Of a stretch of DNA of 64,000 nucleotides, positions 12,897 through 53,385 are shown in pieces. Under the pieces are notes generated by a model. The model made no database searches. It was not told the DNA's origin and saw only the letters and a list, made by a program, of their open reading frames with translations. Positions within the stretch are counted from its first letter, which is position 1. Each line of letters begins with the position of its first letter. A program made the position numbers and the translations under genes. The stretch is from a virus: IMG/VR virus record IMGVR_UViG_3300049001_000080, positions 1-64,000 of that record. One strand, given 5' to 3'.

Positions 12897-13971
12897 TCTT
12901 GCAGAACCAGCAGCTCAGCGCCTTCGGTGGCTGCCAGAGGCAGGCCGGCACGGCGCCCGCGTACAGCTCCGCGACCGTCAGGTCGTCCATGTCGCCTGGG
13001 TCGGCCGCCCAGGGGCTGTCGACCACCCAGACGTCGGTGTAGGGAGTCAGGCGGTCGATCAGCCCGGGCCTGCGCTGGCGGCCCTCCTGGGCGCCCTGGA
13101 CCGCCTTCCAGCCGGCGTCGTCGTTGTCCATCCACAGCACGACCCGCTTGTGCTCGGCGATCAGACGGACCTGGGCGTCGGTCACCTCGCTGCCGAAGGT
13201 CGCCTCGATGGGCAGGTGGTGCGTGTGCCGCAGCACGCTCATCGGCGACTCGACCACCACGGCGATCCGACGCGCGGGGTCGTAGTTGTAGATCGTGCGC
13301 CCGGCCGGGAACTCGCCGGTGCTGAGGTACTTGGGGCTGCCGTCGTCGTAGAGCCGGCGGGACTGCCAGCCCACCAGGTCGCCGCGCCAGAAGTGCGGGA
13401 AGACGACGCGCTCCCCCGTCCGGCCCTGGTCGTCGAGGGGGAACCGCTCGGCGTACCCCACCCGCAGCGCCCGCACGTTCTCCCTCGGCACACCGCGACC
13501 CTTGGGCACGGCGTCGACGGGGTCGGTGAGGTAGGGGTGGATGAGCATCCACGGCGCGATGGCCCGCTCGCTCATCCTCGGGATCGGCGTCAGCCCGCGG
13601 CGGGGCGCGGCCTCCATCGCGTCGATGATGGACAGCAGCGTGCCGGCGTCCCAGTCCGGCCCTGTACAGGACTTCTGCTTCAGCCACTCCCGGGCCGCCG
13701 GCCCCGGGATGCCGCGGCACGCGGCGATGAACCAGAGCAGACCACCATAACTATTACAACTAAGACAATTGTAGACAAGCTTCTTATAATTTAGGGAGGC
13801 GGACGGTCGGCTCTCGTCATGCCAGGGCAGCACGCAACAGTGCTCCAGCTCACCCTTCTCGTGCCTGACCCTGATCCGCGTAGCGCCGAACTCGGCCAGC
13901 AGCCCGCGGCACATCTCCTCCTTGACCGCGTCCGGCAGGAGCGCGGTCTCGAAGATCGAGGTCTCGGTCAT
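12871..13971 (-). CDS. DNA primase (Zn-finger + TOPRIM)
   Basis: C..PWHDE..PS......YNCLSC; VVFP; KYL; VVVESPMS; WMDNDDAG. Confidence 0.9.
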   Translation of the reverse strand: MTETSIFETALLPDAVKEEMCRGLLAEFGATRIRVRHEKGELEHCCVLPWHDESRPSASLNYKKLVYNCLSCNSYGGLLWFIAACRGIPGPAAREWLKQKSCTGPDWDAGTLLSIIDAMEAAPRRGLTPIPRMSERAIAPWMLIHPYLTDPVDAVPKGRGVPRENVRALRVGYAERFPLDDQGRTGERVVFPHFWRGDLVGWQSRRLYDDGSPKYLSTGEFPAGRTIYNYDPARRIAVVVESPMSVLRHTHHLPIEATFGSEVTDAQVRLIAEHKRVVLWMDNDDAGWKAVQGAQEGRQRRPGLIDRLTPYTDVWVVDSPWAADPGDMDDLTVAELYAGAVPACLWQPPKALSCWFCKSVHDGHCP

Positions 13972-14297
13972 GACGCCCGCACCCTGGCGCCGTCGTCGTC
14001 CAGCCGACGGCGCGACCCGTCGCGCCACGAGCCGTTCCGCTCGCCCGTGGGGGCCCCGCCGCGGCTCGGCTGGTAGCTAGCGCGCCAGGAGAGCACCTCG
14101 TCGGGGTCGAACAGCCAGGTCGTCTGCCCGCCGACCTCGACTCGCACGCCGCCTGGGAAGCCGTTCGTGGCCCTGCGGCTCAGCCAGGCGTCGGCCTGCC
14201 TGCGGGTGACGCCCAGGAGGGCGGCCACGCTGGAGGTGCCGCGCAGGTAGCGCTCGCCGAGCACCTCGACGTACCTGACGACCTCGGGCGGCCTCAC
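13968..14297 (-). CDS. HTH DNA-binding protein (excisionase/AlpA-like)
   Basis: GTSSVAALLGVTRRQADAW...FP...LFDPDEVLSW. Confidence 0.7.
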   Translation of the reverse strand: MRPPEVVRYVEVLGERYLRGTSSVAALLGVTRRQADAWLSRRATNGFPGGVRVEVGGQTTWLFDPDEVLSWRASYQPSRGGAPTGERNGSWRDGSRRRLDDDGARVRAS

Positions 14298-15601
14298 GCC
14301 GGGGCCACCGAGCAGCGCACGGACATCTTGCCGACGTCGATGTGTCGGTTCAGCTCCCAGGCCGCCCCAGGGGGGACGCGACGACCAGCGACCTGCTCGA
14401 ACGTGCACAGGTTGTTGGCCTGCTGCATCCGGTTGGCGTGCAGCGCGAAGGCGAAGGAGCAGGTCCGCTCCACGCCGGAGCCCTCGGCGGCGTGCCGGGC
14501 CTTCGCGTGGCCGTGCTTCTCGATGTACTCCTCGCCCTCGCGGTTCACCTGGTGGATCAGGAGGCAGGGCAGCAGGTGCCGGCCGGTGGAGACGAGGACA
14601 GCCAGCTCCTTGATCGTCCGCCAGATCTCGTCCGGCTTGGTGCCCGCCTTGCGCTCCGTGGTGGGCGACATGAAGGTGAGCTGGTCCAGGATGATCGAGT
14701 CGGCGCCGTAGGCCCTGGCCTGCTGGACGAGCTGGGCCGGCGTCCGCATGTCCTCGTCGGGGTGGAAGATGTGCAGCGGCACGTCGCTCGCGTCGAGCAC
14801 GTCGTGCACCCACGTCTTGAGCTTGTCGTAGTCCTCGGCGTCGAGCTTGCCGTCCTGTAGCTCCTGGATCGAGAGGCCCAGCGCGACGCAGGCGAGCCGG
14901 AGCTGGGTCATCTCGATGCTGTTCTCCATCGTGTAGAGCGCCACCACGCGCCCGCGCTCCCACTCCCTTACCGCCACGAAGTCCGCGAACCATGACTTCC
15001 CTTGCTTCGGAGGAGCCATCACGACAGCGACCTCGCCGTCCCAGACGCCGCGCGTGTGGGCGTCGACCTCCGGCAGGCCGAAGGTCAGGCCGCGGATCGG
15101 GTTGCCGGAGGCGGCCACCCGGTCGTACTCGGCGAGCATGTCCAGGGCGCCGGTGCGCAGGTCGACCGCCGTAGTCCCCGGCTCCAGCTTGGTCGAGATC
15201 ATCGCCAGCTCGGCCGAGTGCGCGGCGATGACCTGACGCCGCTCCTCGGGGGCGCACTCGGCGATCCCGTGCACGAGGCTCCGGGTGAAGCGGGACACCT
15301 CGGAGCGGCCGAAGTCGGCGCGCAGCTCCTCGACCGCCGACTCCATCGTCTCCTCGGGCGGGTGGTGGACGTCGACCTCATGGTCGGACAGGACGTGCCG
15401 GTCGGTCTCCCACCGCCGCACGATCACGTCGGCGGTGGGCGCCCGGTTGCCCTGGCGCAGGTAGCCCAGCGCCCACTGGACGACGGGCCTCAGCCCGGGG
15501 CTGGGCAGCAGCTCCAGCTCCAGCCCCTCGCGGGCCAGGCTCTTAAGGCTCTCGGTGTCGGTGAGCAGGCCGACCACGACCCGCTCGGCCGCAGTGCTCA
15601 C
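14294..15601 (-). CDS. DnaB-like replicative helicase
   Basis: Walker A APPKQGKS, YTMEN, IILDQL, IHQVNREG. Confidence 0.9.
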   Translation of the reverse strand: MSTAAERVVVGLLTDTESLKSLAREGLELELLPSPGLRPVVQWALGYLRQGNRAPTADVIVRRWETDRHVLSDHEVDVHHPPEETMESAVEELRADFGRSEVSRFTRSLVHGIAECAPEERRQVIAAHSAELAMISTKLEPGTTAVDLRTGALDMLAEYDRVAASGNPIRGLTFGLPEVDAHTRGVWDGEVAVVMAPPKQGKSWFADFVAVREWERGRVVALYTMENSIEMTQLRLACVALGLSIQELQDGKLDAEDYDKLKTWVHDVLDASDVPLHIFHPDEDMRTPAQLVQQARAYGADSIILDQLTFMSPTTERKAGTKPDEIWRTIKELAVLVSTGRHLLPCLLIHQVNREGEEYIEKHGHAKARHAAEGSGVERTCSFAFALHANRMQQANNLCTFEQVAGRRVPPGAAWELNRHIDVGKMSVRCSVAPA

Positions 15602-16437
15602 TCGATCACCACGGGGCGCACCAGCCGGAGGTCCCGCTCCTTGAGGCGGCGCAGCCGGACCTCCTCGCGGCGGTCGGGGCCGGAGAACTCCACCAGCTCG
15701 GAGCACTCGTACAGGACCGACATGGTGTGGCCGCCGTACCCCGTCCGGATCTCCTCGGGCGTGAGGTTGGTGGTCAGGATCGTCGGCATGCTCTGCTGCA
15801 CCCGGTGCCGGATGACCTCCTCCAGGGTGGAGTCGGCGATGCTCCTGACCCCCTTGTGCTCGCGGCCCAGGTCGTCGATCAGCAGCACCCCGGCGTTGCG
15901 CACGCGTCGCACGAACCAGGCCCGCTCCGCCTTGTCGGTCCAGCCGCCGGAGAACGAGGAGAGCAGGCTCGCGAAGGTGGTCGAGTACCCGTCGAACCCG
16001 GAGGACACGAGCCGCTTGAGCAGCAGCTCGGCGAACATCGTCTTTCCCGTCCCGCGGCCCTCGCCGTGCAGGATCAGCCCGAGGCCGGAGTCGATGTACT
16101 CGGCGGCGCTCGCGGTGTACCGCTCGGCGAGGTCGAGGTGGGCGACGTTGACGCTGAACTGGTCGACCCAGCTCAGGCGCTGGTAGGCCAGCCCGATGCC
16201 CGAGTAGAGGAAGCGCAGGTGCAGGTACCCCTGGTTGCCCGGCGGGCACTCGTACTCGCCCACCTGCTCCCGCTGGGTCATCGGCGCGTACCAGCGGAAG
16301 GAGCCGGTGCCCCGGCAGGTCACGCAGTGGTCGTGGTCGACGGCCAGCCCGGGGTAGCGACTCTCCAGCTCGTCGAGCTGCTCGTCGGGCAGCGAGAGGA
16401 CGGTGCTGGGAACGGGCGGTAGCTGGAGGAGCGGCAT
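15598..16437 (-). CDS. DnaC/IstB-like helicase loader ATPase
   Basis: GRGTGKT, LLIDDLGRE, PTILTTNL, FSGPDRR. Confidence 0.9.
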   Translation of the reverse strand: MPLLQLPPVPSTVLSLPDEQLDELESRYPGLAVDHDHCVTCRGTGSFRWYAPMTQREQVGEYECPPGNQGYLHLRFLYSGIGLAYQRLSWVDQFSVNVAHLDLAERYTASAAEYIDSGLGLILHGEGRGTGKTMFAELLLKRLVSSGFDGYSTTFASLLSSFSGGWTDKAERAWFVRRVRNAGVLLIDDLGREHKGVRSIADSTLEEVIRHRVQQSMPTILTTNLTPEEIRTGYGGHTMSVLYECSELVEFSGPDRREEVRLRRLKERDLRLVRPVVIE

Positions 16438-16482
16438 GCGCGTCGACCTCTCTGGCGGTGTGCTGGCGGTGGCGGTGACGAG

Positions 16483-16908: not shown

Positions 16909-17203
16909 CGACGACCTCCTCCTCGACGCGGCCGAACTGGTCGCGGAGCACGCTCTGGCGGAACGCCGCCACCACCGGCTCCACCCGGGCGCGGACGCCC
17001 TCCGGCTCGGCCTCTAGGTCGCCGTCGTGGCCGATCACGACGGTGCTCGACTTGTGCACCAGGCAGACCTGGCCGTCCGGCCGGACGAGGGCCCAGTGGT
17101 AGCTGTCGGACCCGCAGACGTAGCCGGCGACCTCGTGCCCGGCCACCAGCGCGGTCACCCTACGGCCCTCGCGGACCGCCCACCCGATCTGACGGTCGGA
17201 CAT
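16895..17203 (-). CDS. Hypothetical protein (small beta-rich, Sm/SH3-like?)
   Basis: ATG at 17203 after AAGG; beta-strand pattern. Confidence 0.55.
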   Translation of the reverse strand: MSDRQIGWAVREGRRVTALVAGHEVAGYVCGSDSYHWALVRPDGQVCLVHKSSTVVIGHDGDLEAEPEGVRARVEPVVAAFRQSVLRDQFGRVEEEVVGVER

Positions 17204-18333: not shown

Positions 18334-18339
18334 TTCTAC

Positions 18340-22749: not shown

Positions 22750-23835
22750 CTAGCCGACCGGCTCAGCACCACCTAGCGGCAGCGGCGGCTCCAGCGCGGC
22801 CCGGCACCGCTCTACGGCCCTCTCGATCACGCCGGCTGGGTCCTTGGCCCACAGCTCGCCCTGGTCCTCGGTCAGCCCCAGCCACTGGTCCAGCGAGACG
22901 CCAAAGCCGCCACCGAGGTGCCAGCGCTCCACCCAGTCATCCTCGTCCTCGACCTGGGCGTTGCCCAGGACCACCTCGGACACCAGGTCGGGCACGCCGT
23001 CGGGGTAGCCGGCGGCCCAGTCACCGACGGCGCCGGAGAGCGGCCGACCGGGCAGGAGCAGCCCCAGCAGGTGCCGGTAGCCGTCGCCACGCGGCAGGTC
23101 GGCGCGGTGGCGCACCCGGCGGCGGGTCGCCTCGACGTCCTCGCCCGTGATCGGGTTGTGGCCGACCTTGACGTGCTCCTCCCACCACAGGCCGACGCCT
23201 CGGCGCTGCCAGGCGGGCACGTCGTTGATGTTGACCCCGAGGTCGTGCAGCATCTCGTTCTTCTCGCTGGTCGAGGTCCCCTCCAGCGTCCCGGTGGCCC
23301 TGGCCGCACTGGCGCCCCTCCCGCGCAGCGTCCAGTAGGCCCAGCCGTTCAGGCAGCAGCGGAACGCGTCGTCCTGCCGCCACCGGAAGTAGTCGAGCAC
23401 GTCCTCGTCGGTGGCCGCCATCCAGACCCGCGAGTCGAAGGTCGGGTAGTCGGCCGGCGCCGTCGCGTGGATGAACGCGGCCGTGGCGGTGGCGGCCGTC
23501 AGCGAGACGATCTTCTCCAGCTCACGGTCGAACATGTCCCAGCCGCGCGGGAGCAGGATCGAGATCTCGTCGGACTCGGTGTAGGCGTAGACGCCGCCGA
23601 ACTCGGTGAGCAGCCTGGCCGCAGTCGCCTGCATCGCGCTGGCGAACCGCTCGTCGAACGGGCGCTCGTACCCGCGCGTCTCGACGAGCCGGGTGAAGGA
23701 GCGCCCGTCCACCCGAACGATGGTCCACATGCCCTTCGGCACGGTGAGCGAGTGCCACCACTCGCCGGCCCGCATCCGGCGCTCCAGGTCGCTCGCGCCC
23801 TCGCGGCGCGGGATCGGGCTGTAGTCGACGACCAT
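22750..23835 (-). CDS. Thg1-like 3'-5' polymerase (tRNA-His guanylyltransferase) with C-terminal extension
   Basis: IVRVDGRSFTR, YTESDEISIL, FDSR, YFRWRQ.D, PAWQRRG. Confidence 0.92.
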   Translation of the reverse strand: MVVDYSPIPRREGASDLERRMRAGEWWHSLTVPKGMWTIVRVDGRSFTRLVETRGYERPFDERFASAMQATAARLLTEFGGVYAYTESDEISILLPRGWDMFDRELEKIVSLTAATATAAFIHATAPADYPTFDSRVWMAATDEDVLDYFRWRQDDAFRCCLNGWAYWTLRGRGASAARATGTLEGTSTSEKNEMLHDLGVNINDVPAWQRRGVGLWWEEHVKVGHNPITGEDVEATRRRVRHRADLPRGDGYRHLLGLLLPGRPLSGAVGDWAAGYPDGVPDLVSEVVLGNAQVEDEDDWVERWHLGGGFGVSLDQWLGLTEDQGELWAKDPAGVIERAVERCRAALEPPLPLGGAEPVG

Positions 23836-30360: not shown

Positions 30361-31311
30361 TCAGGCGCTCCAGCTCGCGACGGCGCCGCAGCCGACGGGT
30401 GTGCGGGCTGCCTCCTCGACGATCTCGGCGATGCTCAGGTCCTGACGGAAGGTGTGCCCGACGGTCTGCTCGACGGCGAGGTACTCCTGGGCCAGCTCGG
30501 GGTTGAGCTGGGCAGCTCGCACGAGGGCCGGCTTCGATGACAACACGCAAAAGCAGCAGCTCAGGCGAGGCATGCCGGCGGCGTACGCGGGGTGCACCTC
30601 CAGCTCGCGCGAGCGCAGCCGGTCCCAGACCTGCGCGTCGGTCCAGTCGTGGATCGGCAGCCAGCGGGTGACCTCGCGCTTGCTGTTGCTGGCCGAGTCC
30701 AGGCTCAGCGCCGACTTCTTGGCCCGAGCCGGCGACTCGGCCGCCCGGATGCCGAGGCAGTTGAGGATGCGCACCGGGCGGTCCAGGGCCAGTTCGGCCA
30801 CCAACCGGGTGAGCAGCTTCTTGACCTGGGAGGTCTTCTGGTCGCTGGTGCAGTACCGCGCGGTACTACTCGGCCAGGCAGGCGTGTTGCGCTTCCGAGC
30901 CGCCTGATCCAGCAGACGGTCGTGCTCGGCCCGCTGCCGCTGCGCGGCATCGAGGCTCACGTCGACAGCCGGGACCAAACAGTCCGCCTCGGCCACGTAC
31001 GCAGCGGCTTCGGCGTCCAAGGTGACCCGACGCTGCACGATCTGGTCGAGCAGGTCGCCCTGCGGCCGGCGCACGACCTCGAACCGAATCGGTCCGCCGG
31101 TGGCGTCGTAGCGACGGACCTGCCGCTCGGCCAGCTCGCGGGTGCCCTCCCACTCAACTCGGCCTAGGTCGGCGTGCACGGCGACGATCCGGGACCGCTC
31201 CACCCCCGCGGCGTCGCACCGCTCGACCAGCCAGTCCAGCATCGCCAGAGAGTCCTTGCCGGCGCTGGTGTTGATCAGGACGTAGTCGTAGCTGGTCAGG
31301 TCGACGGTCAT
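30361..31311 (-). CDS. PAPS-reductase-family (PP-loop) protein
   Basis: SAGKDS, RYCTSDQK, GIRAAESPAR, PIHDWT, HPAY, RLSCCFC. Confidence 0.9.
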   Translation of the reverse strand: MTVDLTSYDYVLINTSAGKDSLAMLDWLVERCDAAGVERSRIVAVHADLGRVEWEGTRELAERQVRRYDATGGPIRFEVVRRPQGDLLDQIVQRRVTLDAEAAAYVAEADCLVPAVDVSLDAAQRQRAEHDRLLDQAARKRNTPAWPSSTARYCTSDQKTSQVKKLLTRLVAELALDRPVRILNCLGIRAAESPARAKKSALSLDSASNSKREVTRWLPIHDWTDAQVWDRLRSRELEVHPAYAAGMPRLSCCFCVLSSKPALVRAAQLNPELAQEYLAVEQTVGHTFRQDLSIAEIVEEAARTPVGCGAVASWSA

Positions 31312-40434: not shown

Positions 40435-41702
40435 CGGTCCGCCCCCGGTCGCGCCCCGGCGTAGGGCGCGGACACCATCACGGCGTCGGAGACCGCGCGC
40501 CCGCGCATGATGGCCTCGGGGTCGGCGATGGCCCGGTCCGGGGTGAGGTCGACCGGGCGCCCGTCCGCCGCGGTGACCCGCTCGTAGTCGACGGCCGAGA
40601 TGACCGCGCCCTGGGTGGACTGAGTGTACGCGGTGACCGACTGGATGTCGGAGTTGTAGGACCACGCCTCGCCCTGGTAGGCCGTGAACGCCGGGCGCGC
40701 CCGGTCGACGGGCGTGGCGGAGGCCTGCGGGTAGTACGCCGCCAGCGACGGCCTCGGCACCACCCGGGTCCGGACCTCCCAGTACGTGGAGCTGGCCGAC
40801 GCGTCGCGGATGTGGGCCGGCGAGTGGACCGCCACCCCCTGGGCGTCGACGGTGAGCAGCGCGCCGGCCGGCTTGAGCCGGTCCAGCACGCGGGTCAGCC
40901 GGTACGCCTCCTCCAGCGTCATCGACCGCAGCGGACGGACCACGAACTCGGCCCGGTTGGACGTGGTGGTCCGACCGAATGACCCGGTGCCGCCCTCGAC
41001 GTCGGCGTAGGTGCCGCCGTCCATCGCCCCGTAGGTGACGAAGTGGGTCTCCACCTCGCCGTAGGTCCGCCCCGCCACCGCCGGTGGGGCGCCGCCAGGG
41101 TTGCCGCCGCCGTTCTCGTCGACCAGCGCCCAGGTCTCGTAGACGCGGCAGTCGACGCTCAGCAGCGCGCGGGCCACCGCGGCCATGCCGGCCGGCGTGC
41201 CCGCCATCGGGATGGCGCGCGAGAACTCGCTCACCCGCGACCGGTAGGCGGCGTCCCTCGCGTCCAGCTCGGCCCACTGCTCGGAGGTCGCGGCCTCGGT
41301 GTAGGGCGACAGGTCGAGCCGCTCGCCGGACAGGCGGGGGAAGCCCAGCAGCGCGCCGTAAAGGCGGTCCAGGTCCAGGTACCTCGTCGTGCTGACGACC
41401 GACCCCATGTGCGCGACCAGGTAGCGGCGCCGGAGCTGGCCGGCGCCGGAGTCGCCGAGCACGGCCTTGAGCAGCCGCGAGAGGTGCGACTCCGGCCGCG
41501 TGTCGTAGAGGTCGGGGAACAGGTGCGCGAGCTGCTCGGCCGAGGGCCGCGCCGGCAGCAGCGGGTCGGTGGTCGTGTCCAGCCGGGTCGAGCGCGGCGC
41601 GCCGCTGGTGGGCGCCTGGAGGGCCAGCAGCACGGCGTCCTGGAGGTACCGCCCGCCCGCGCCCTGGTCGAGCGCGGCCGGGTCGCCGTCGAGGGAGGCC
41701 AT
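40431..41702 (-). CDS. Baseplate wedge protein (P2 gpI-like position)
   Basis: LDRLYG...D..YR.R...GT..G...RLKPAG; follows baseplate J. Confidence 0.65.
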   Translation of the reverse strand: MASLDGDPAALDQGAGGRYLQDAVLLALQAPTSGAPRSTRLDTTTDPLLPARPSAEQLAHLFPDLYDTRPESHLSRLLKAVLGDSGAGQLRRRYLVAHMGSVVSTTRYLDLDRLYGALLGFPRLSGERLDLSPYTEAATSEQWAELDARDAAYRSRVSEFSRAIPMAGTPAGMAAVARALLSVDCRVYETWALVDENGGGNPGGAPPAVAGRTYGEVETHFVTYGAMDGGTYADVEGGTGSFGRTTTSNRAEFVVRPLRSMTLEEAYRLTRVLDRLKPAGALLTVDAQGVAVHSPAHIRDASASSTYWEVRTRVVPRPSLAAYYPQASATPVDRARPAFTAYQGEAWSYNSDIQSVTAYTQSTQGAVISAVDYERVTAADGRPVDLTPDRAIADPEAIMRGRAVSDAVMVSAPYAGARPGADR

Positions 41703-44479
41703 CAGGACACGCCGAACGAGTTGGCGGCCTTGGCCACGTAGTTGATCGAGTAGAGCGCGGGCACCTCGTTGTCGCCGAGCTGCACGTCCGCGGCCCGGGC
41801 CGGCGAGGACCCGGCGGTGATGAAGGAGATGCGGGTCCCGGCCGCGTCCACCCGCTCGATGGCGTAGGCGCCGCCGGTGGTCGGCTCGGCGCTGGTGAGG
41901 AGCCGGATGTTGTCCACGCCCGTCACCTCGTGCGCGACCTGGATGACGTCGGACACCTGCACGGGCGAGCCGAAGTCCTTCGCCGCGAGGAAGACGGCCA
42001 GGGAGGCCTGGAGCGCGGTGGCCACCTGGGCCGGGTCGTAGCCGGGGACGAACATGATCGCGAAGTTCAGCCGCAGTAGCACGCGCTTGGCGGCGTGGGC
42101 CCGCACGTCGGTCGCGACCAGTCGCCACCGCTCGACCCGCTCCTGGACGTCGCGTGGGATGGCGTTGTAGGAGTACTGGAGCGACGCGGCGGCGTTGTTC
42201 GCCGGGTGGTGGGCGGCCAGCCACTCCAGCCCGAACAGCGACCGCGGGCTGTACCCGTACGCCGTGTCGTCGTGGACGACCCAGTAGTCGGTGCCCTTGA
42301 CGTAGGTGTTCCCGCCGATGATCAGCGGGGAGGGGAAGACGTCGATCGGGCCGAACGCGAGCTGCATGAAGATGTTGGCCGCGGTCGGGTGCGTGGAGAC
42401 GGTGCCCTGGCGGACGAACTTGCCGGTGAACAGCGCGTCGGTCGAGCCCGACGTGAACACCCGGGCGGTCCGCATGTACGTCGTCTCGCTGGCGTCGACC
42501 GGCCGGTCCCCGTCCACCCAGACGTCCACCCGGTTGGTGATCCCGGCGGCCGGGTCGTTCCTGCTGGCCGAGCTGTTGTACTCGAAGTCGAGGTCGTAGA
42601 TCGCCCCGTCGGTCAGGCCCACGCCGATCGTGTGCACCTCGGGCGGGATCACGGTGGCGTCGAACGAGTTACCTGTGAAGTAGGTCCGACCGCCTCGGCG
42701 AGCCAGGAAGGTGCCGTTCCGAGTGGTGGGACACCAGATCGGTCCTGCGTAATGACGCAGGCTCTTCTTCATGGGGGCGACGCTTACGTGGCGTACCTTT
42801 TTAATGTTGACGTGATGCATCTGTACGCGGCCAAATGGAGTGTCAAGGACCTTACGGCCTTGGCGTGTCGGGAGGCCAACTAGTGCGCAAAGTGCCTGGA
42901 ATACATCTGCCTGATCGGCACTCGCAGTGCAGAAATACCGAGTACCCGTGCCTGCCCCTCTGACCCCTCCTCCTTGCATTCCCCCGTCACCCTTGATCAA
43001 GGTGTCGATCAACATCTCGCGCTGATGGACAGGTAGGACTGAGATCAGCTCGTAGGTCAGCTTCTTGTCGGGCAAGGCTGATCGGACTTGCCGGGCTAGT
43101 TCACGTGAAAAGGCAAAGATCGTGATGTCGTCGTCGATGTAGGTCTGATACGGATGCCCCAGCCTCTTGAGGAGGAGTCGGATCTCCTCCACCTTCTCAG
43201 GATTGGCGAGGTGACTCTGTCCGATTTTGACTCGAAGCTTCCTTGGCTGCGAGTCGAAGGAGCCGTCGCTAGCGACCCACCCCAGTAGTCGTACAAAATC
43301 ATCGGTATAAATAGATTCGATGGACTCTTCGAGGGGAGCCGTAACCACGATGCCGTCCGACGGCCGCAAGTCATGAGTCTCTCGTAGTATGGCGGGCTGG
43401 CTCGTGCGAATCCGGTGAGCGTTTGTGACCGGCCAACGGTGGTTCGTCGTCACCAAGGCCGAGATGGACCTCCCCTCCATCGATACGAGGGGCTCGTCTA
43501 CTTCCGCTCGGTAAAGATCTGTCACCGGCGTCCATTCAGCGACGCCGCGATCCAGATTCAAGGAGAGAATCTCATCGCCGATCTGGATCTGTCGATGGTC
43601 TACCCAGCCACTGTGTGACAGGGCCTGCGTGTTTTTGTCCACGCAGTAATGTACCCCCAGGGTTAGGATCTGGCCGGCATCGAGGTCGGCGCCCAGGGCC
43701 GGGTTGTCGGCGTAGATGTAGGTCGCGCTGGTGGCGGGGATGGAGCTGGTCGCGTCGCCGGACCCGTCGATCTGGACCTGCTCGCGCCAGTGCGAGGAGG
43801 AGCCGATCACCCTGGCCCGGGTGGCCACCCCGTCGTCGGTGGTGTCGGGGGTGCTGTCCTCCAGCGAGAGGCCCAGGAACATGTCCTCGGTGCCGGCCAG
43901 GCTGCGGAACACCGTCCGCTTGAACCGGTCGATGAGCGCGAGGTCGTCCTCGGAGCTGGTGCCGCCGGTCGTGGGCGAGGAGTTGGTCACGCTGGCGACC
44001 CCGCTGGCCGGCGAGGCGAGCCTGACCAGGGTGTTGGCCGCGAGGTTCCCGGACTGGCCCCCGACGATCGCCTGCACCGGGACGTCCACGCTCGACACCC
44101 CGCGCTGGAGGATCGCGGGAGAGACGGTCGCGAACACAGCGGGGACCGAGGTGGCCGTGGTGACCTGGGTGCCGGCGGCGATCGGGTAGTCCTGGTCGGC
44201 CGGCGTCGGGCGGGCGAACGTGACGACCCCGGTGCCGCGCTGCGCGGCGAACCTGGTGAAGCCGAACACGGCCACGAAGTCGTCGAGGTCGGCGCCGCGC
44301 TTGGAGTCGATGTCGAGCTGGTAGTTCAGCAGGTGCTGGTCGACGTACGCGGCGGCCACCGACTCGGCCACCACGTCGAGGATCTTGCGCACCGGCGTGC
44401 CGACCGAGGTGTCCAGCTCGGGCTCGGAGACGGCCAGGGCCGCGACCATCTGGGCGGCGACGTCGGCGGCGCTGGCCAT
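41702..44479 (-). CDS. Baseplate J-like protein interrupted by an intein
   Basis: G.DLD..FGFTR..A..GTG.VTF, I.AGT.V, G..GN..A, TGG...EDD.L..R. Confidence 0.9.
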   Translation of the reverse strand: MASAADVAAQMVAALAVSEPELDTSVGTPVRKILDVVAESVAAAYVDQHLLNYQLDIDSKRGADLDDFVAVFGFTRFAAQRGTGVVTFARPTPADQDYPIAAGTQVTTATSVPAVFATVSPAILQRGVSSVDVPVQAIVGGQSGNLAANTLVRLASPASGVASVTNSSPTTGGTSSEDDLALIDRFKRTVFRSLAGTEDMFLGLSLEDSTPDTTDDGVATRARVIGSSSHWREQVQIDGSGDATSSIPATSATYIYADNPALGADLDAGQILTLGVHYCVDKNTQALSHSGWVDHRQIQIGDEILSLNLDRGVAEWTPVTDLYRAEVDEPLVSMEGRSISALVTTNHRWPVTNAHRIRTSQPAILRETHDLRPSDGIVVTAPLEESIESIYTDDFVRLLGWVASDGSFDSQPRKLRVKIGQSHLANPEKVEEIRLLLKRLGHPYQTYIDDDITIFAFSRELARQVRSALPDKKLTYELISVLPVHQREMLIDTLIKGDGGMQGGGVRGAGTGTRYFCTASADQADVFQALCALVGLPTRQGRKVLDTPFGRVQMHHVNIKKVRHVSVAPMKKSLRHYAGPIWCPTTRNGTFLARRGGRTYFTGNSFDATVIPPEVHTIGVGLTDGAIYDLDFEYNSSASRNDPAAGITNRVDVWVDGDRPVDASETTYMRTARVFTSGSTDALFTGKFVRQGTVSTHPTAANIFMQLAFGPIDVFPSPLIIGGNTYVKGTDYWVVHDDTAYGYSPRSLFGLEWLAAHHPANNAAASLQYSYNAIPRDVQERVERWRLVATDVRAHAAKRVLLRLNFAIMFVPGYDPAQVATALQASLAVFLAAKDFGSPVQVSDVIQVAHEVTGVDNIRLLTSAEPTTGGAYAIERVDAAGTRISFITAGSSPARAADVQLGDNEVPALYSINYVAKAANSFGVS
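42668..43645 (-). mobile_element. Intein (326 aa) with LAGLIDADG homing endonuclease
   Basis: Block A CVDKNTQAL, block B TTNHRW, LLGWVASDG / LIKGDG, blocks F/G IWCPTT...YFTGN|S; lower GC than the host gene. Confidence 0.93.
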
Positions 44480-44956: not shown

Positions 44957-45292
44957 CTACGTCGTGCCGTCCTCGACCAGCCCGAGGGCCACCAGGGCGT
45001 CCAGCACGGACAGCGTGACGGCGTCCGCGCCCGCCCTGGCCCCCGACACCACCGGCGGCCGTGGGGCGTCAATCATCGCTGACAGCACCCAGGTGTCGCC
45101 GGTCATCCTGGACACCACCCACAGCTCGTCGACGGCCGGCGGCGGGTTCCCCTTGGGGCGGGTCGAGTAGCGGACGACCCGCTCGCGCCCGAGCGTGTCC
45201 CGCACGATGCAGGTCCCGTCCTCCAACACCGAGGTGACCCGGGCACGGGTCGTCTCCAGGCCGGCGGGCGGGCGTCGCGGGTCGAGCGTCAC
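44957..45292 (-). CDS. Baseplate spike-like OB-fold protein
   Basis: ARVTSV...P.VDELWVV; position between hub and gp25. Confidence 0.5.
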   Translation of the reverse strand: MTLDPRRPPAGLETTRARVTSVLEDGTCIVRDTLGRERVVRYSTRPKGNPPPAVDELWVVSRMTGDTWVLSAMIDAPRPPVVSGARAGADAVTLSVLDALVALGLVEDGTT

Positions 45293-47697
45293 AGCGCCGC
45301 CCCCCGGGGGAGGCCCTTGATGCCGTCGCGCGGGCCGATCGTGGACCAGCCGATCACCCTGGCCGTGGTGGCGAAGCCGCCGCCGGTCCGGAGGTCGAAG
45401 GTGTGCTCGACCTCCTGGACGTACCCCTGGATGCCGTAGGTCGGCAGCACCACGAGCATGCCGGGGTACAGCTCGGGCATGAAGGTCAGCGGCAGCGACG
45501 CGCTGTACTGCGAGGCCCAGTTGAGCATGAACCGGCTCACGGCGAAGAAGAACTCCTGCCGCGGGCCGGTGATGTCGTCCATCGGCTCCCAGACCGGCCG
45601 CGCGCCGTATCGGCGCAGGAACGCCTTGCCGTTCTCGCGGAACTCGGCCCGGTCGACCTTGAACAACGCGCGCATCAGCGGCGCGAACTCCACGCTCGCG
45701 ATGCCGGCGGTCGAGTACTGCTGGTAGATCGCGGTGGAGTCGCCCAGCCCCTCGACGCCGGTCGTCGAGGACGTCACGAACCAGTGCGTCTTGAGGTTGG
45801 CGTCGCCCTTGGCGACCGAGAAGCCCTGCTGGATCTCGATCGGCTGGATCACCATCTTGGCCGCGGTGCCCCACCAGCCGAAGTAGTCCGGGAACCAGGC
45901 GATGAAGTCGCCGTTGGGCGCCGAGCAGTAGCTACGCAACCCGGCGGCCATCAGCGCGGCGACCGTCTCCATGATCGGCTTGTCGTTCATCAGCGCGCGG
46001 ATGCCGCCGAGCAGGTCGCCGCCGAAGTCGGCGCTGCCGATCCACTGGAAGACGTTGAACAGCGACGCGCCCAGGCTCGGGCTCGACCCACCTGAGCCGG
46101 AGGCCGACGTCGGGTCGCCACCCGCACCCGTGCCCGCAGTGCCGGCGTAGTCGAGGTCCGGCACCAGCCCGGCGTGTGTCCAGTGGTTGGAGGCGAACGC
46201 GAAGATCCCGCACCCGTCCTGGGTGCCGCGCGCCTCCGCAGTGGTGCCGTTGCCCATCGAGACGCCGACGTGGTGGATGGCGCGCGGGTCGCCGTTGTCG
46301 GTGACGAAGACCAGGGCGCCCTTGGTGGTCTGCGCCTGCGAGACGGGGATGGGGCGGCACGCCGCGTACTGGTACTTCGCGCCGTCGACGAACGCGCCCG
46401 CCCCGATCCTGCTATGTGCCCATTTGACTAGCTCACTACAGTCCAAGGCGTCGGGGTCCGGGTCGGCGGCGGAGGCGGTGGCGCCGAAGAGGTACGGGTG
46501 CCCGAGCCGGCACCAGGCCGCCGCGACGTCGGCGAGAGAGGCCGCCGAGCGCTGGTTGGCCAGCGCGGCCCCCAGGCCGGTCGCCAGCGAGGCCCCGGAG
46601 GTGGAGCCACCAGAGGTGACCAGCGAGCCGGTGGCGGTGTCCACGGGCCCCACGGGCATGCCGGAGGGCGCGAAGGCGACGCTCACCTGCCCGCCGCCGG
46701 CCGGCAGCCCGAGCGCCTTGAGCGCGGCCGGGCTGGTGTCGGCGATGTGCGCGGTCGAGGCGTCGTAGTCGACCGGCCCCCAGCCGAGGCCGGCGAGGCA
46801 GACCGCCTTGTTCGTCTTGGGGTTGACGATCAGCATCCGCCGGCCGGTCCACCACGCCCGCGCCCGGCCCTGGTCCACCCCCGGCACGGGGGAGAGCTGC
46901 TGGTCGCCCGGGAACCGGTGCTGGCGGCTCAGGTAGGGCCAGCGCATGGCGACGTAGTACGGGCTCGCCCCGGGGTTGGCCGAGCGCGCGTCGAGGTGGT
47001 CGACCCGCGGGCTGTAGGCGCCGATGGTCCCCGAGATGTCCGGCAGCGCGCCGGTGCCCGGGCCGTCCCCGGCGATGAGCTGGGTGCCGCGCTCGACCGG
47101 CGAGATGCCGGACACGTAGCCGTGGCTGCCGACGTGCGCGACGAGCTGGAGCTTGGTGGCCTCGCCGATCAGGTCCCGCGCGACGCCGGCCACCACGGTG
47201 AACCAGTCGTCGGGGATCGCGCCGATGTGGACCTGGGCCCTCGGCCAGCCGGCGACCTCGGTCAGCAGCCGGAGCGCTCGCTTGGCCAGCCCGCCGTCGG
47301 TGATGTCCGCGCGGTTGGCGACGTCGCCGAGGTAGAGCATCTGGTAGGCGGCCTCGGTGCTCGGGTCCCACTGCCAGTACTGGAGCCGCTTGAGGGTGCA
47401 GCTCGCCGTGAGCACGACGGCGCCCGGCACCGAGGAGAACGCCGGCACCGAGTCCAGGTAGCCGGTGAGGCACAGCAGCCGCTTGATCCTGGTCAGGTAG
47501 ATCACGATCCGGTCCATCGTGTCGAACAGGCCGTCGTACTTGCGGCCGGTGTTCTGGAGCGTCAGCGTGGCCGAGGAGACCCCGTCGACGACACGGGTCG
47601 CACCGCCCATCGTGATGTCGTCGCTGACGTCATAGATCTTGCCGTCGGACGCGGCGATGTGCGCCTCTACCCTCGGCGAGTAAACGAACGTTGACAC
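45289..47697 (-). CDS. Baseplate hub with inserted DPBB (RlpA-like) and NlpC/P60 peptidoglycan hydrolase domains
   Basis: PY.FG...LDCSELV.W...G.LVF...HVG; YVAMRW...V.NP.T.K.V...WGP...D.SP.A...LG. Confidence 0.8.
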   Translation of the reverse strand: MSTFVYSPRVEAHIAASDGKIYDVSDDITMGGATRVVDGVSSATLTLQNTGRKYDGLFDTMDRIVIYLTRIKRLLCLTGYLDSVPAFSSVPGAVVLTASCTLKRLQYWQWDPSTEAAYQMLYLGDVANRADITDGGLAKRALRLLTEVAGWPRAQVHIGAIPDDWFTVVAGVARDLIGEATKLQLVAHVGSHGYVSGISPVERGTQLIAGDGPGTGALPDISGTIGAYSPRVDHLDARSANPGASPYYVAMRWPYLSRQHRFPGDQQLSPVPGVDQGRARAWWTGRRMLIVNPKTNKAVCLAGLGWGPVDYDASTAHIADTSPAALKALGLPAGGGQVSVAFAPSGMPVGPVDTATGSLVTSGGSTSGASLATGLGAALANQRSAASLADVAAAWCRLGHPYLFGATASAADPDPDALDCSELVKWAHSRIGAGAFVDGAKYQYAACRPIPVSQAQTTKGALVFVTDNGDPRAIHHVGVSMGNGTTAEARGTQDGCGIFAFASNHWTHAGLVPDLDYAGTAGTGAGGDPTSASGSGGSSPSLGASLFNVFQWIGSADFGGDLLGGIRALMNDKPIMETVAALMAAGLRSYCSAPNGDFIAWFPDYFGWWGTAAKMVIQPIEIQQGFSVAKGDANLKTHWFVTSSTTGVEGLGDSTAIYQQYSTAGIASVEFAPLMRALFKVDRAEFRENGKAFLRRYGARPVWEPMDDITGPRQEFFFAVSRFMLNWASQYSASLPLTFMPELYPGMLVVLPTYGIQGYVQEVEHTFDLRTGGGFATTARVIGWSTIGPRDGIKGLPRGAAL

Positions 47698-49530: not shown

Positions 49531-49531
49531 C

Positions 49532-51988
49532 TCAGTTGCCGGTCGCGTTCGGGTATTCGTAGGGCGTGGACGGGAACGGGGCCGCGGGCACGCCCTGGCG
49601 CCGCGCCTGGTCCACCGTGACGCCGCCGGAGGTGACGATGCCGAGGATGCGCCGCAGCTCGTCGGTGGCGTAGATCGTCACGGTGCCGGTGACGCCGGCC
49701 TGGCTCGGGTCCTTGGAGCCCTTCGGCGCCGCCCTGCCCGACGACGTGACCGCGGCGCCACGGTCGCCCATCTGGCCGGTGGCCTGCGCGACCGTCTCGC
49801 CCGTCTGCTGGATCACCACGTCGCCGCGGCTGAGCTGGTCCTCGAAGCTCTTGAACGCCTCCTCGAAGCTGACGGCCTTCGAGCCATCCTTGGTCTGCAC
49901 GACGAACGACTTGTCCCTGAGCCCCTTCTCGTCGCGCAGCAGCGCCTCCAGGATCGCGCTGCGCTGGCCGGTGCCCGGGTCGGTGACACGCATGTGCGCG
50001 TCCGTCGAGCCCTCCACCCGGCCGAGGTAGGCCTGCCCCGCCTTGGAGAGGTCGCCGACGCTCGACGCGCCCAGCTCCTTGGCGATCTGCCGCTGCTGCC
50101 CGCCGATGGCCCTGGCCGTCTCGCTGTCCCCGCCCTTGACCTGGCGCTGGTCGCGCACCGTCAGGATCTTCTGCCCACCGATGGTCGAGCCGCCCCCGGG
50201 GAGCTGCGGGGTGGACAGCGCCTTGTCGAACCGGAACCCGCCGAGCGCCACCTTGGCGGCGACCTCGTAGACGTTGGCCGGCGTGACGCCGCCGATGCCC
50301 ATGGCCTGCGCGACCGCCATGAACTGGGTCGGGTTGAGCATCCCGCGCTCGGCCATCGTCCGCCCGATGCTGGCCGCGTCGCTCTCGGTGAGCTGGCCGC
50401 CGGTCTGCGCCATCGCGCGCTGGGCCTCGCCGTGCGCGAACTGGAGCGCCGACCCGCCGAACACCGAGTCGCGCACCCGGTCGACCTGGCTCTGGAGGCC
50501 GCGGCCCAGCAGCGACGGGTCGTCCTGCGCCTTGGCCGCGTAGGCCATGGGGCTCATCCCGAGCTGGGAGGCCTGCATCATCATGGCCGGCTGGCTGAGC
50601 ATGCCGGTGAAGTCGAGCTGGCTGCCGAGCAGCCTGCCCTGCTTGCTGACCTCCTGCTGGATGCCGGCGGCGATGGCCGGCGCGGAGCTGCCGCCGGTCA
50701 CCTGCGCCTGGACGGTGCCCAGGGTGTTGGCGAAGGCGCGCTGCACGGTCTGCACGTTCTGGCCGGTCTCGCGGGCGGTCTTCGAGACCTTGTCCAGCGC
50801 GCCGGTCAGCGAGGAGAACTCGGTGACCCCGTTGCGGACGCTGGCCTCGATCAGGGCCAGCGAGTCGGCCACGTCCATGCCCGTCTTGCGGAACTGCTGG
50901 GTCGCGAAGTCCAGCGCCCCCTGGCGCTCACCGCCCTGGAGCCCGGCGGCCGTGGTGCCCAGGTAGAGCGACCGGGCCTCCTCGCCCTGCATGACGCCGA
51001 ACTGGCTCAGCTCGAACCCCATCTGACCGACGCGCTGGCGGAAGCCGGAGGTCGGGTTGGTGAGCGAGAAGTTGTCGCCGCCGGTGATCTGCTGGTAGGT
51101 GCGGTTGGCGTCGCGCTGGCGCTCCAGGAAGCGCGCGCCCAGCATCGCCCCGCCGGCCGCGAACCCGACCGGGCCGGCCACCCGCCCGAGGCCCGGCAGC
51201 GCCGCGCCCAGCGACTCGCCACGCGCCACCGCGCCGGCCGCCGCGAGAGCGTTGGCCCGCGCGTTGAGCACGCGCCCGCGCAGCGGCCCGGCCTGCTCCG
51301 CCGTCGCCTGCCGGCCCTTACCGGACCAGCGGACCCAGGTGTCCTCGCCCTCGACCTGCTCCCAGCCGGACTGGGCCTGCGCGTCCTGGAGCCCCTGCGC
51401 GAGGTGGCCGGCGGCGCGCTGGCCCATCTCCGCGAGGCTGAACGAGCGGAAGGCCTCGCGGGGCGACAGCGAGGACAGCGGGCGCGGGCCCTCCGGGACG
51501 CCGGGCGCCATCTGCTCCAGGGTCGGCGCGTGGCCGGCCGAGACCTGCGACGCTGTGATCGACTCGGGGGCGTCCAGCGGGTGCGGCATCCCCGGCCGGC
51601 CTGGCGCGGCGCCCCGCATCGCGGCGGTGATCTGGGCGGCGGCCTGCTGCACCGAGGCGGCCAGCTCGCGCATCCCGACCCTGATCTCGCGGAAGGACTG
51701 CTCGATGCCGCCGCCCATCATCTGTCCGTGCGTGGACAGGTCGTAGGCCTGGCGCATCTGCTGGCGGATGATCGCCTGCGCCACCGGGTCGCCGGTGATC
51801 TGCGGGGTGAGCCCCGGCACCGTGCCGGCGCCGTAGAGGCCGCTGTCCTGGGGCGAGGGCATCATCAGGCCCGGCGGGAGCAGCGGCAGCCCGCTGGGGG
51901 ACAGTGGCTGCGAGGTCGAGGACTGCACGGTGTTCGGGACCATCGGCTGCCCGTCGGGGCCGGTGGCGTAGGGGCCGGTCACACCCAC
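49532..51988 (-). CDS. Tape measure protein
   Basis: 818 aa, A/G/Q-rich helical; follows the chaperones. Confidence 0.8.
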   Translation of the reverse strand: MGVTGPYATGPDGQPMVPNTVQSSTSQPLSPSGLPLLPPGLMMPSPQDSGLYGAGTVPGLTPQITGDPVAQAIIRQQMRQAYDLSTHGQMMGGGIEQSFREIRVGMRELAASVQQAAAQITAAMRGAAPGRPGMPHPLDAPESITASQVSAGHAPTLEQMAPGVPEGPRPLSSLSPREAFRSFSLAEMGQRAAGHLAQGLQDAQAQSGWEQVEGEDTWVRWSGKGRQATAEQAGPLRGRVLNARANALAAAGAVARGESLGAALPGLGRVAGPVGFAAGGAMLGARFLERQRDANRTYQQITGGDNFSLTNPTSGFRQRVGQMGFELSQFGVMQGEEARSLYLGTTAAGLQGGERQGALDFATQQFRKTGMDVADSLALIEASVRNGVTEFSSLTGALDKVSKTARETGQNVQTVQRAFANTLGTVQAQVTGGSSAPAIAAGIQQEVSKQGRLLGSQLDFTGMLSQPAMMMQASQLGMSPMAYAAKAQDDPSLLGRGLQSQVDRVRDSVFGGSALQFAHGEAQRAMAQTGGQLTESDAASIGRTMAERGMLNPTQFMAVAQAMGIGGVTPANVYEVAAKVALGGFRFDKALSTPQLPGGGSTIGGQKILTVRDQRQVKGGDSETARAIGGQQRQIAKELGASSVGDLSKAGQAYLGRVEGSTDAHMRVTDPGTGQRSAILEALLRDEKGLRDKSFVVQTKDGSKAVSFEEAFKSFEDQLSRGDVVIQQTGETVAQATGQMGDRGAAVTSSGRAAPKGSKDPSQAGVTGTVTIYATDELRRILGIVTSGGVTVDQARRQGVPAAPFPSTPYEYPNATGN

Positions 51989-52365
51989 TCACCTACCTCG
52001 GTCGCCATGACGTCCCCGGTGCTGTGCGTGGCGATCCACCGCTCCAGCTCGGCCCGCTCGGTCTCGGACGCCGGCACCCGCCACTCGACGTCGGGCTCCG
52101 CCCGCGGGTCGTCCTCCTCGCCGCCCGCGGGGAACCAGCGGGGGAACAGCGCGCGGACCCGGTCGGGGTGGTTGGCGGCGATCCGCGACCGCAGCTCGTC
52201 GAGGAAGCCGCGGGCCTGGTCACGACGCTCGACCATCATCAGCATCTGGAGCCCCAGCTCCTGCACGCGGGACAGGCTCGCTCCCCGTAGGACGCCGCGT
52301 CGGTCGGCTAGGCGGAGCTGGACCTCCAGCCACGGGTCCACCTCCCCTAGCCGGAAGCTTTTCCC
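51979..52365 (-). CDS. Tail assembly chaperone, -1 frameshift extension (gpGT)
   Basis: -1 frame open from slippery GGGAAAA (52359-65). Confidence 0.8.
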   Translation of the reverse strand, partial: GKSFRLGEVDPWLEVQLRLADRRGVLRGASLSRVQELGLQMLMMVERRDQARGFLDELRSRIAANHPDRVRALFPRWFPAGGEEDDPRAEPDVEWRVPASETERAELERWIATHSTGDVMATEVGEWV

Positions 52366-52862
52366 ATTGCCTCCAGCACCCTGCGCACGAGCAGCTCCAG
52401 CTCGATGTACTCCTGGTAGACCCGGTCCAGCACCGGCGGGAACCACCGGTCCATCACGTACTGGAAGTTGGTCTCCAGCACGCCCTCCGCCCCGGCGTCG
52501 GAGAGCAGCGGGACACCGGGCAGCGGCCGGCCGTCGGCCGAGACCACGCAGGCCGCGACGATGGCCCCCTGGCAGGCCTTGAGGTACCCATCGGTCTCCG
52601 CGTACCGCTTCGTGATCAGGGACGTGGCCACCAGCTCGCCGCTGCGCAGCGTGCGGATCTTGAACCGGTGCCCGAGCCAGGTGAACTCCTTGGCCAGCGC
52701 GCCCAGGTAGAGCAGCCCGGCGAACTCGTCGCGCCAGCGAGGGTCGAACTCCGGCAGCGGCGGCCCGGGCGTCGGGTCCTCGCTGGCCGGCTCGGTCGGG
52801 CGCGCGGCCTCGGGCGGCTCGTAGCCGGAGTAGAGGGCGTCCTCCAGCGGGTCGTCGCTCAA
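52347..52862 (-). CDS. Tail assembly chaperone (gpG)
   Basis: Between tube and tape measure; ends MGKASG. Confidence 0.8.
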   Translation of the reverse strand: MSDDPLEDALYSGYEPPEAARPTEPASEDPTPGPPLPEFDPRWRDEFAGLLYLGALAKEFTWLGHRFKIRTLRSGELVATSLITKRYAETDGYLKACQGAIVAACVVSADGRPLPGVPLLSDAGAEGVLETNFQYVMDRWFPPVLDRVYQEYIELELLVRRVLEAMGKASG

Positions 52863-52884
52863 CCGGCCCTCCTAGGAGGATGCG

Positions 52885-53385
52885 TCATAGCTTCGTTGTG
52901 TGCGTGTATGCGACCTGGATCTGCTTCTGTACCGATAGAGCACCGATTGATACGGTGTCGCCCGACTGGATGTTGACGACGGTGCAGCGGTGGAACACGG
53001 TCCCGTACCGGGCGCCGTTGGGCGGGTCGATGATCTTCGTGCAGGTGACGTACTGCGGGGTCTGCGCGAGGCGGTCGAAGATCTCGACGATGGTCTTCGT
53101 CCCGGTGAGGCCCTGGAGCTGCTCCCAGACCTGCTGGTTCCACAGCTCGCGGATGCCGAGGGTCAGCACGCCGCCGTCCAGCACGCGCGAGGTGACGATG
53201 TCGATCGGGTGCCGCGAGCCCAGCGGGGTGATGAACTCGAACCCCGGTCCGCCGTTGCTCACCGCGGCCTGGCCGGTGTCGTTGATGATCTCCAGGTAGG
53301 CGATGGCCTTGCCGGCGTAGGTGAAGGTCGTGTAGCCGCTGCCGACGACCCTGACCTTGGCGGTGGTCTCGCTGGGGGACGTCAT
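52885..53385 (-). CDS. Tail tube protein
   Basis: 166 aa beta-rich protein directly after the sheath. Confidence 0.75.
   Translation of the reverse strand: MTSPSETTAKVRVVGSGYTTFTYAGKAIAYLEIINDTGQAAVSNGGPGFEFITPLGSRHPIDIVTSRVLDGGVLTLGIRELWNQQVWEQLQGLTGTKTIVEIFDRLAQTPQYVTCTKIIDPPNGARYGTVFHRCTVVNIQSGDTVSIGALSVQKQIQVAYTHTTKL

Follow-up and report, generated by a model that had tools for sequence, protein, structure and literature searches.

Patches of A/T-ending codons at intein junctions in the primase, DnaB, and NlpC/P60 genes of a GC-rich phage genome

Why should a phage genome in which nearly every codon ends in G or C carry short runs of codons ending in A or T, some of them placed on the catalytic motifs of its genes? 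The question is raised by the IMG/VR viral contig IMGVR_UViG_3300049001_000080 (102,445 bp, 72% GC), the first part of which, a stretch of 64 kb, is the window analyzed here. Gene calling gave 73 genes for the window and 118 for the whole contig, all real genes being located on the minus strand, and the phage is distantly related (about 30–38% protein identity) to cluster-C-type Mycobacterium, Gordonia, and Rhodococcus myoviruses. An earlier sequence-only reading had noticed clusters of A/T-ending codons (hereafter patches) in the genes of a primase, a DnaB helicase, a tail protein with an NlpC/P60 domain, and the tail tube, and had taken them for immunity or co-conversion scars of homing endonucleases. 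Such selfish elements, like inteins, as a rule come to notice only while a genome still harbors them. The first three of these patches are found exactly where relatives carry inteins, and they therefore most likely mark a conflict with homing endonucleases; the A/T-ending patches of this genome do not all share one single cause.

The gene names used in that reading (primase, DnaB, RecA, PAPS reductase, NlpC/P60, and baseplate J with an insertion) were backed by Pfam, and its four strong clusters proved to be real. Across the genome, 949 of 20,177 codons (4.7%) are A/T-ending. Windows of 10 codons with at least five of them occur 136 times vs. about 7 in within-gene shuffles, the majority of the 136 falling within an intein resident in the baseplate-J gene, and a per-gene permutation scan detected an A/T-ending codon cluster (p ≤ 0.05) in 26 of 105 genes. 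For the comparison of conservation, 29 genes were aligned to the related phage genomes G001, G002, and G004. The main close relative was L030, a metagenome contig that is 84% identical at the nucleotide level over 2.9 kb, from the primase to DnaB. The Pfam models for inteins and LAGLIDADG endonucleases gave no match in the four nearest relatives (G001–G004).

Predicted inteins of relatives at the primase, DnaB, and NlpC/P60 patches

Setting aside low-complexity runs and the intein itself, the sharpest patch of the genome lies in the gene of a DnaG-type primase (12871–13971, minus strand; 366 amino acids (aa), with a CHC2 zinc finger and a Toprim domain according to the Pfam models Zn_ribbon_DnaG and Toprim_2 and to its homologues). 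It comprises codons L60–G77 (13741–13794, minus strand), 14 of 18 being A/T-ending, while the wider stretch 13741–13809 has 15 such codons out of 23. The most AT-rich window of 40 nucleotides (nt) in the whole 102 kb is found here (30 of 40 positions vs. a mean of 11.1 ± 2.7), and the AT content of the patch exceeds that of every intergenic region. L030 has a single A/T-ending codon among the 18, and along 13741–13809 the two sequences differ by 22 substitutions in 69 nt, 17 of which are GC to AT in this phage; four amino acids are changed and the CxxC motif is kept intact. Outside the patch (2814 nt) the corresponding counts were 95 GC to AT and 111 AT to GC. Judged against L030, the primase patch is a recent one, with changes biased towards AT. 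No strand-switching C to T signature, as would be linked to deamination during resection, was seen near the junction by hand reading, which codon constraints make uninformative.

An exhaustive HMMER search with the primase retrieved many homologues of 520–766 aa that match it in two stretches. In at least nine of them, alignment A1 places an insert exactly between the equivalents of N68 and C69 (C69 being the first Cys of CxxC), and inteins occupy the same junction in P0074 and in L036, a locus with 57% GC, which gives a total of at least 10 homologues and three DNA loci (L034, L035, and L036). The inserts start with CL[AS]GET (CLAGET), contain an ATxxHRW block and two LAGLIDADG motifs, and end with LTGN in front of the Cys. 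LAGLIDADG_3 (PF14528) scored above the Pfam cut-off in P0021 and P0007, and P0005 and P0020 carry, at this zinc-finger junction, mini-inteins that are about 150 aa long and lack an endonuclease domain. Going by sequence, one primase family presents the full intein, the mini-intein, the empty site, and the diverged empty site together. In the genome studied here the N68/C69 junction is placed between 13768 and 13767, with nine codons (27 nt) of the patch on each side. Among the intein-bearing loci, L034 uses G/C-ending codons up to the junction on both extein sides, its flanks being close in sequence to the intein-free L030 and G004, and the patch differs from the joined L034 flanks at 22 of 51 nt (hand count). 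L035 is G/C-ending on the C-extein side, and 10 of 22 codons are A/T-ending in its N-extein flank. In intein-free primase relatives, 18 of 90 codons (20%) are A/T-ending at the junction vs. 14 of 252 (5.6%) in three motifs of that gene taken as controls, which counts in favor of homing conflict; among the junctions compared, this is the only one with an excess shared by relatives, and a mild one.

The gene of the DnaB-like replicative helicase (14294–15601, minus strand; 435 aa, Pfam DnaB_C) carries its patch on Walker A, where the codon scan found 5 of 12 codons (A192–S203; 14993–15028, minus strand) to be A/T-ending. At this motif the phage differs from L030 by four additional GC to AT changes, all of them silent, the peptide being otherwise identical. 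One of 19 IMG/VR relatives of DnaB, the 151-kb G005, bears a LAGLIDADG intein of 334 aa between ...GPKVGK and SFFLDLVALREWE... (SFFLDL...), a position equal to K202/S203 of the helicase considered here. The G005 gene is a single open frame of 1085 aa, in which the parts matching residues 2–204 and 202–396 are about 990 nt apart; the insert has the intein blocks AEAVT...HDW...VCIQV...THN followed by Ser, PF14528 scored above its cut-off, and the flanks at the junction consist of ordinary G/C-ending codons. Here the K202/S203 junction lies between 14996 and 14995; the patch ends at +1, and a further A/T-ending codon (GTA) stands at +9. A search for longer DnaB homologues, which is weak evidence, returned none. 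Starting with Ala, having Trp in block B and Cys in block F, and ending with Thr-His-Asn, the G005 intein (L116) shows the signature of class 3, and class 3 inteins were reportedly first described from the DnaB intein of mycobacteriophage Bethlehem (PMC2807308). In the same gene, L030 has a lower-GC micro-tract of its own, aligned to 15230–15290 and diverged in both DNA and protein (VTSISDAEPEG vs. VHGIAECAPEE); as this part of DnaB is not conserved, foreign-looking micro-tracts also occur off intein sites.

The third patch belongs to a tail protein of 802 aa with an NlpC/P60 peptidoglycan hydrolase domain (45289–47697, minus strand; Pfam NLPC_P60, alignments A4 and A7). Six of nine codons are A/T-ending in C420–H428 (46414–46440, minus strand). 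A search of 5.8 billion proteins yielded P0157, a protein of 1162 aa that is 59–62% identical to the tail hydrolase and contains NLPC_P60, LAGLIDADG_3 (PF14528, above its cut-off), and Intein_splicing domains. Its intein separates the catalytic Cys from the Ser that follows it in the host protein (...SSDC/CLTGD...VAHN/SELV... in alignment A7, slashes marking the junctions). The equivalent C420/S421 junction falls here between 46438 and 46437, and the patch spans –1 to +8, with the catalytic Cys as its first codon. The DNA of P0157 was not present in IMG/VR. Nearer homologues of the tail hydrolase are P0151 (99%), P0152 (76%), and P0153 (73%).

At all three sites the inserts are in frame within a conserved host protein whose sequence resumes on both sides, and Intein_splicing scored 25–35 bits, at or just under the Pfam cut-off. 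By insertion, splicing blocks, and endonuclease domain, the inserts in the primase, DnaB, and NlpC/P60 homologues are predicted LAGLIDADG inteins. The position of the patches fits the junctions to the codon: the primase patch is centered on its junction, that of DnaB ends at +1, and that of NlpC/P60 starts at –1. Six junctions were mapped on the five proteins searched, and three of them are inside patches that make up about 78 of 2483 codons (about 3%), a coincidence with a binomial P(≥ 3) of about 5e−4 by our own arithmetic. Mobile elements at the exact positions of the patches, as the sequence-only reading would have them in relatives, were thus found for three of its four strong sites and not for the tail tube.

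A probable homing conflict weighed against other explanations

Taken together, the patches in the primase, DnaB, and NlpC/P60 genes probably represent the silent-site divergence of empty alleles that were in conflict with intein homing endonucleases. LAGLIDADG inteins would circulate among GC-rich cluster-C-like actinobacteriophage myoviruses, and their endonucleases would cleave intein-free alleles during co-infection, at a target that extends across the junction. An allele in which this site is sufficiently different would escape cutting and be kept, which may be how the DNA within about 30 nt of the homing junction came to diverge silently in the three genes, the primase having changed at four replaceable residues as well. 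Because nearly every codon is G/C-ending, a synonymous change at a two-fold codon gives an A/T-ending one, so that such divergence becomes visible as an AT-rich patch. The GC-rich flanks of the intein-bearing alleles, close to L030 and G004, make the GC-rich version the probable homing target, and the patches would accordingly be diverged targets and not copies of those donors. In each of the three genes the junction of an intein that circulates in relatives is inside the patch or at its edge, with the DNA diverged and the protein motif kept, as expected of immune empty sites. Co-conversion, in which the flank should equal that of the donor, does not describe them, the flanks of L034, of the C-extein side of L035, and of G005 being unlike the patches. 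The divergence could have originated in a single short gene-conversion or break-repair event with a lower-GC relative as template, in stepwise selection for resistance, or in an earlier occupancy by an intein that was then lost; the 42–78% A/T-ending content of the patches and the four amino acids changed in the primase point towards a single foreign tract, but the donor searches described below were fruitless. The interpretation offered by the sequence-only reading, immunity or co-conversion scars, remains the best one for these three sites and is not supported for the tail tube, for its weaker sites, and for a genome-wide link.

A number of observations weigh against homing conflict. We infer both the cleavage of the GC-rich version by an endonuclease and the resistance of the AT-rich one. 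The share of A/T-ending codons in the patches (42–78%) is far higher than in the inteins and flanks seen (10–34%), so the patches are not copies of observed intein-bearing alleles, and a donor for the primase patch was found neither by blastn against 50,697 phage records (only a chance match of 25 nt to a Staphylococcus phage) nor by a search of IMG/VR with an exact degenerate pattern. The homologues with an intein amount to a single one for DnaB (G005) and a single one for NlpC/P60 (P0157), and 79 IMG/VR relatives of the tail hydrolase had no insertion at the catalytic Cys, only linker insertions at the equivalents of residues about 522–563. The DnaB patch is the weakest of the confirmed ones, ranking 16th with a gene-wise p of about 0.015, in a genome where the clustering of A/T-ending codons is common for other reasons (the 26 genes mentioned above). 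Other junctions used by inteins in relatives are unmarked or only mildly marked here: the second primase site, S217/T218 (P0013 and P0015), is fully GC-ending, and in the portal gene (genome positions 92130–94274, outside the window) none of 40 codons is A/T-ending at W115/C116, with a mild excess (5 of 18) at the Gizmo-type site S487/M488. Intein-free relatives have no excess of A/T-ending codons at the junctions of DnaB (1.03-fold; 14 relatives), NlpC/P60 (1.24-fold), or portal (1.10-fold). Finally, an interrupted homologue of the tail tube was found neither in 21 IMG/VR loci nor in 223 records of cultured phages, nor by the search for longer homologues.

It is unlikely that the patches stem from short gene conversions with relatives of lower GC content, acquired anywhere and with no role of an endonuclease, but surviving only where the peptides of donor and recipient are nearly identical, as in conserved motifs, which inteins also prefer; the match with intein sites would then be indirect. 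Potential sources exist, as the wider family has members with 46–57% GC (L124, L125, L138, and L167), and the micro-tract of L030 in a non-conserved segment, the replacement of four amino acids within the primase patch, which is expected of a foreign tract, and the widespread clustering of A/T-ending codons all agree with it. This explanation would nevertheless have to produce, in three genes, patch edges or centers that match an intein junction to the codon, far more tightly than by falling on the same motif; the binomial probability given above speaks against that, as do the fruitless donor searches in phage records and IMG/VR. Nor do patches as a class prefer conserved windows, contrary to the genome-wide rule that the sequence-only reading had proposed: across the 29 aligned genes, 3.96% of codons are A/T-ending at invariant positions vs. 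3.58% at variable ones, the within-gene conservation percentile of nine internal patches varies between 0.19 and 0.99, and many patches are situated at gene ends or in low-complexity runs.

Three further explanations were considered for the patches. That they are DNA signals embedded in genes (promoters, an unwinding element, or sites of AT-seeking proteins), the one in the primase serving as a promoter in antisense direction or as an AT island resembling an origin, seems quite improbable. The best sigma-70-like match of the 102-kb genome, AAGACA-17-TATAAT (10 of 12 positions), is on the plus strand at 13762–13790, antisense within the primase patch, which holds the most AT-rich 40 nt of the genome; the AT tract upstream of it would span –56 to –3, and an antisense transcript across the 5′ end of the primase and DnaB is possible. 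Only three such matches occur in 102 kb, the second one (12204–12232) also being in an A/T-ending patch. The argument is circular, however, since an AT-rich consensus can be matched by AT-rich DNA alone and the peptide NYK...CL written with T-ending codons yields these hexamers automatically, and the match, which is absent from L030 and all relatives, is probably a by-product of these codons. Moreover, the NlpC/P60 and DnaB patches have no promoter-like match, and the reading leaves unexplained why three patches fall on intein junctions. A TGTAGTG motif common to the NlpC/P60 patch and an intergenic AT island was not significantly enriched (5 hits vs. 2.35 expected). Rare-codon clusters that delay the ribosome over catalytic motifs, to assist co-translational folding or the loading of metal, or that lower the expression of the primase would suit patches that cover a zinc finger, a P-loop, and a catalytic Cys; the intein-free primase relatives, which are also A/T-richer at the zinc finger than at the control motifs, and a weakly positive position-specific sharing of A/T-ending codons across relatives (Mantel-Haenszel odds ratio 1.3–1.7) point the same way. 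We regard this as very improbable, because L030, the closest relative, lacks the patch at both the primase and the DnaB site, intein-bearing alleles use common codons there, the primase patch alters amino acids too, and relatives are locally at background frequency for NlpC/P60 (51 relatives, 0.135 vs. 0.128, the DNA of the site being GC-ending), DnaB (14 relatives), and the tail tube (17 relatives, 0.11 vs. 0.10). Escape from host defence by recombinational replacement of protospacers (of clustered regularly interspaced short palindromic repeats, CRISPR) or restriction sites has in its favor the size of the patches, 24–54 nt, which resembles that of protospacers, and CRISPR attack was a possibility raised by the sequence-only reading; as a match to intein junctions at the precision of a codon would not be expected from it, it is the least credible of all and extremely improbable.

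The proposed homing conflict in relation to known systems

The homing of inteins with co-conversion of their flanks is established, as is the homing cycle, in which invasion is followed by decay of the endonuclease, loss, and a new invasion. The present case resembles this cycle in that LAGLIDADG inteins of cluster-C-like phages are lodged in the conserved motifs of both virion and replication proteins, with use of the P-loop between K and S/T; in the sporadic occurrence of full inteins, mini-inteins (P0005 and P0020), and empty sites in one primase family; and in the foreign-looking N-extein flank of the resident intein. It departs from it in that the feature is found in empty alleles, in the form of a dense silent patch unlike the flanks of the observed intein-bearing alleles. 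The free-standing seg and mob endonucleases of T-even phages cause intronless homing and marker exclusion. Common to both are the conflict of phage vs. phage, localized gene conversion driven by cleavage, and an immunity that comes from target polymorphisms, but no free-standing endonuclease gene is located beside the sites described here, the gene next to the primase encoding a small helix-turn-helix protein, and the elements involved are inteins. Conserved rare-codon clusters, in which synonymous rare codons are position-specific, are likewise local runs of rare codons in otherwise optimally coded genes; unlike them, the patches of this phage are private to the lineage, absent from the closest relative, and not kept across homologues.

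A further parallel is offered by the WHO elements and FBA1 of Torulaspora yeasts, where the targets of LAGLIDADG endonucleases were experimentally shown to diversify and thereby evade cleavage, and where one in three single synonymous changes is already enough for resistance (bioRxiv 10.64898/2026.08.13.744650). In both cases a protein-coding target of about 28 bp would be selected to change while its function is kept, and synonymous changes can suffice. The yeast case concerns nuclear genes, non-intein elements that replace half of a gene, and resistance measured by experiment, whereas here phage genes and inteins are concerned and resistance is deduced; in addition, the extreme GC content at third codon positions makes the signal readable as an anomaly of codon usage in the phage.

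Mycobacteriophage inteins have been catalogued, the P-loop between K and S/T being a classic site, and inteins in the primase zinc finger, at the NlpC/P60 catalytic site, and in baseplate J are not part of that catalogue (PMC5050341). New phage intein insertion points are added by the CHC2 zinc finger of the primase (between N and C), by the catalytic site of the NlpC/P60 tail hydrolase (between C and S), and by the baseplate-J site. A published description of codon-bias patches that mark empty phage intein sites was not found in the literature searched. More tentatively, short runs of off-bias codons in intein-free genes of strongly biased genomes could be a general footprint of homing-endonuclease conflict that maps present and past sites, in which case the patches left unexplained (52930–52953, 93021–93074, and others) may be sites of unsampled elements or of precisely lost inteins; we hold this to be possible yet doubtful. 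If it were true, the codon scar left at the junction of empty alleles would allow the conflict between selfish elements and phage genes to be read from a single genome, and homing sites, together with the likely recognition sequences of the endonucleases, could be predicted.

The resident intein and patches away from intein junctions

The baseplate-J gene (41702–44479, minus strand; Pfam Baseplate_J) encodes 925 aa here vs. about 605 aa in relatives, the difference being a resident LAGLIDADG intein (aa 279–604; 42668–43645, minus strand). It starts with CVDKNT, ends with YFTGN, and is followed by Ser at +1; its GC content is 57%, and 34% of its codons are A/T-ending vs. 1–2% in the exteins. 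The enrichment that the sequence-only reading had reported for the extein codons just before this intein was borne out: among the last 12 N-extein codons (43646–43681, minus strand), four are A/T-ending (GAT, CTA, GTA, and CAT) vs. a background of 2.2%, and there are none in the first 40 codons of the C-extein. This tract matches the intein by composition only (33% vs. 34% A/T-ending codons) and looks like a co-conversion tract; that the resident intein has a flank of this kind counts in favor of homing conflict at the three patches. The end of the resident intein (42668–42740), ...IWCPTTRNGTFLARRGGRTYFTGN followed by Ser, closely resembles the inteins of P0013 and P0015 at the second primase site (...WCPQTVDGTWVARRxGxVFITGN followed by Ser), and a single lineage of inteins seems to have spread to host genes that are unrelated to each other.

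The patches of the tail tube, the portal, and many other genes are not explained by homing conflict. That of the tail tube (6 of 8 codons A/T-ending; 52930–52953, minus strand, from the codon scan) is at the C-terminus and probably has a different cause, either an effect of the 3′ gene end or a private conversion. In the portal gene, outside the window, the codon scan detected a patch with 9 of 18 A/T-ending codons (L218:9190–9243, equal to genome positions 93021–93074) that covers the invariant segment GETYAADALNRDL (residues 402–418). In the ranking of patches it comes after that of NlpC/P60 and ahead of that of the tail tube. No insertion was found at these residues among 80 relatives. Portal inteins are instead located at W115/C116, where 6 of 80 IMG/VR relatives carry one, in line with several cluster-C records that are broken at residue 116, and at S487/M488, and both portal patches are elsewhere in the gene.

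The weaker sites of the sequence-only reading, in RecA, DnaE, and PAPS reductase, turned out to be background and are not patches according to the codon counts (all on the minus strand). In the region of RecA ISSGSIS (6563–6637) 2 of 25 codons are A/T-ending, and 2 of 5 in ISSGS itself; in that of DnaE PDFDIDF (8885–8965), none of the seven motif codons is A/T-ending, and in that of the PAPS reductase RLSCCFC (30523–30597), none of the five of RLSCC. No phage sequence matched DnaE by megablast.

Many patches of A/T-ending codons are also seen in the last few codons of genes (e.g., 2033–2065, 2566–2592, 5606–5635, 11889–11918, 22765–22776, 52356–52370, and 58629–58667). These genes abut or overlap the start of the next gene, and the patches fit constraints imposed by ribosome-binding sites or low structure rather than homing, and the tail-tube patch may belong to the same class. 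The second strongest patch in statistical terms is a low-complexity run of 17 Asp/Glu codons, nearly all GAT, without any motif (L218:13056–13106; genome positions 97056–97106), and further patches are found in generally AT-richer genes, e.g., that of a C5-methylase. Lastly, a patch encoding VDSKDACEHHD (12201–12233) in a gene of unknown function (11886–12896) contains a promoter-like TTGACT-17-CATCAT on the sense strand. Relatives likewise have A/T-ending codons at the aligned positions (GTT in all three, and CAT/CAA/CAA), and the patch is a candidate for an internal promoter rather than a homing scar.

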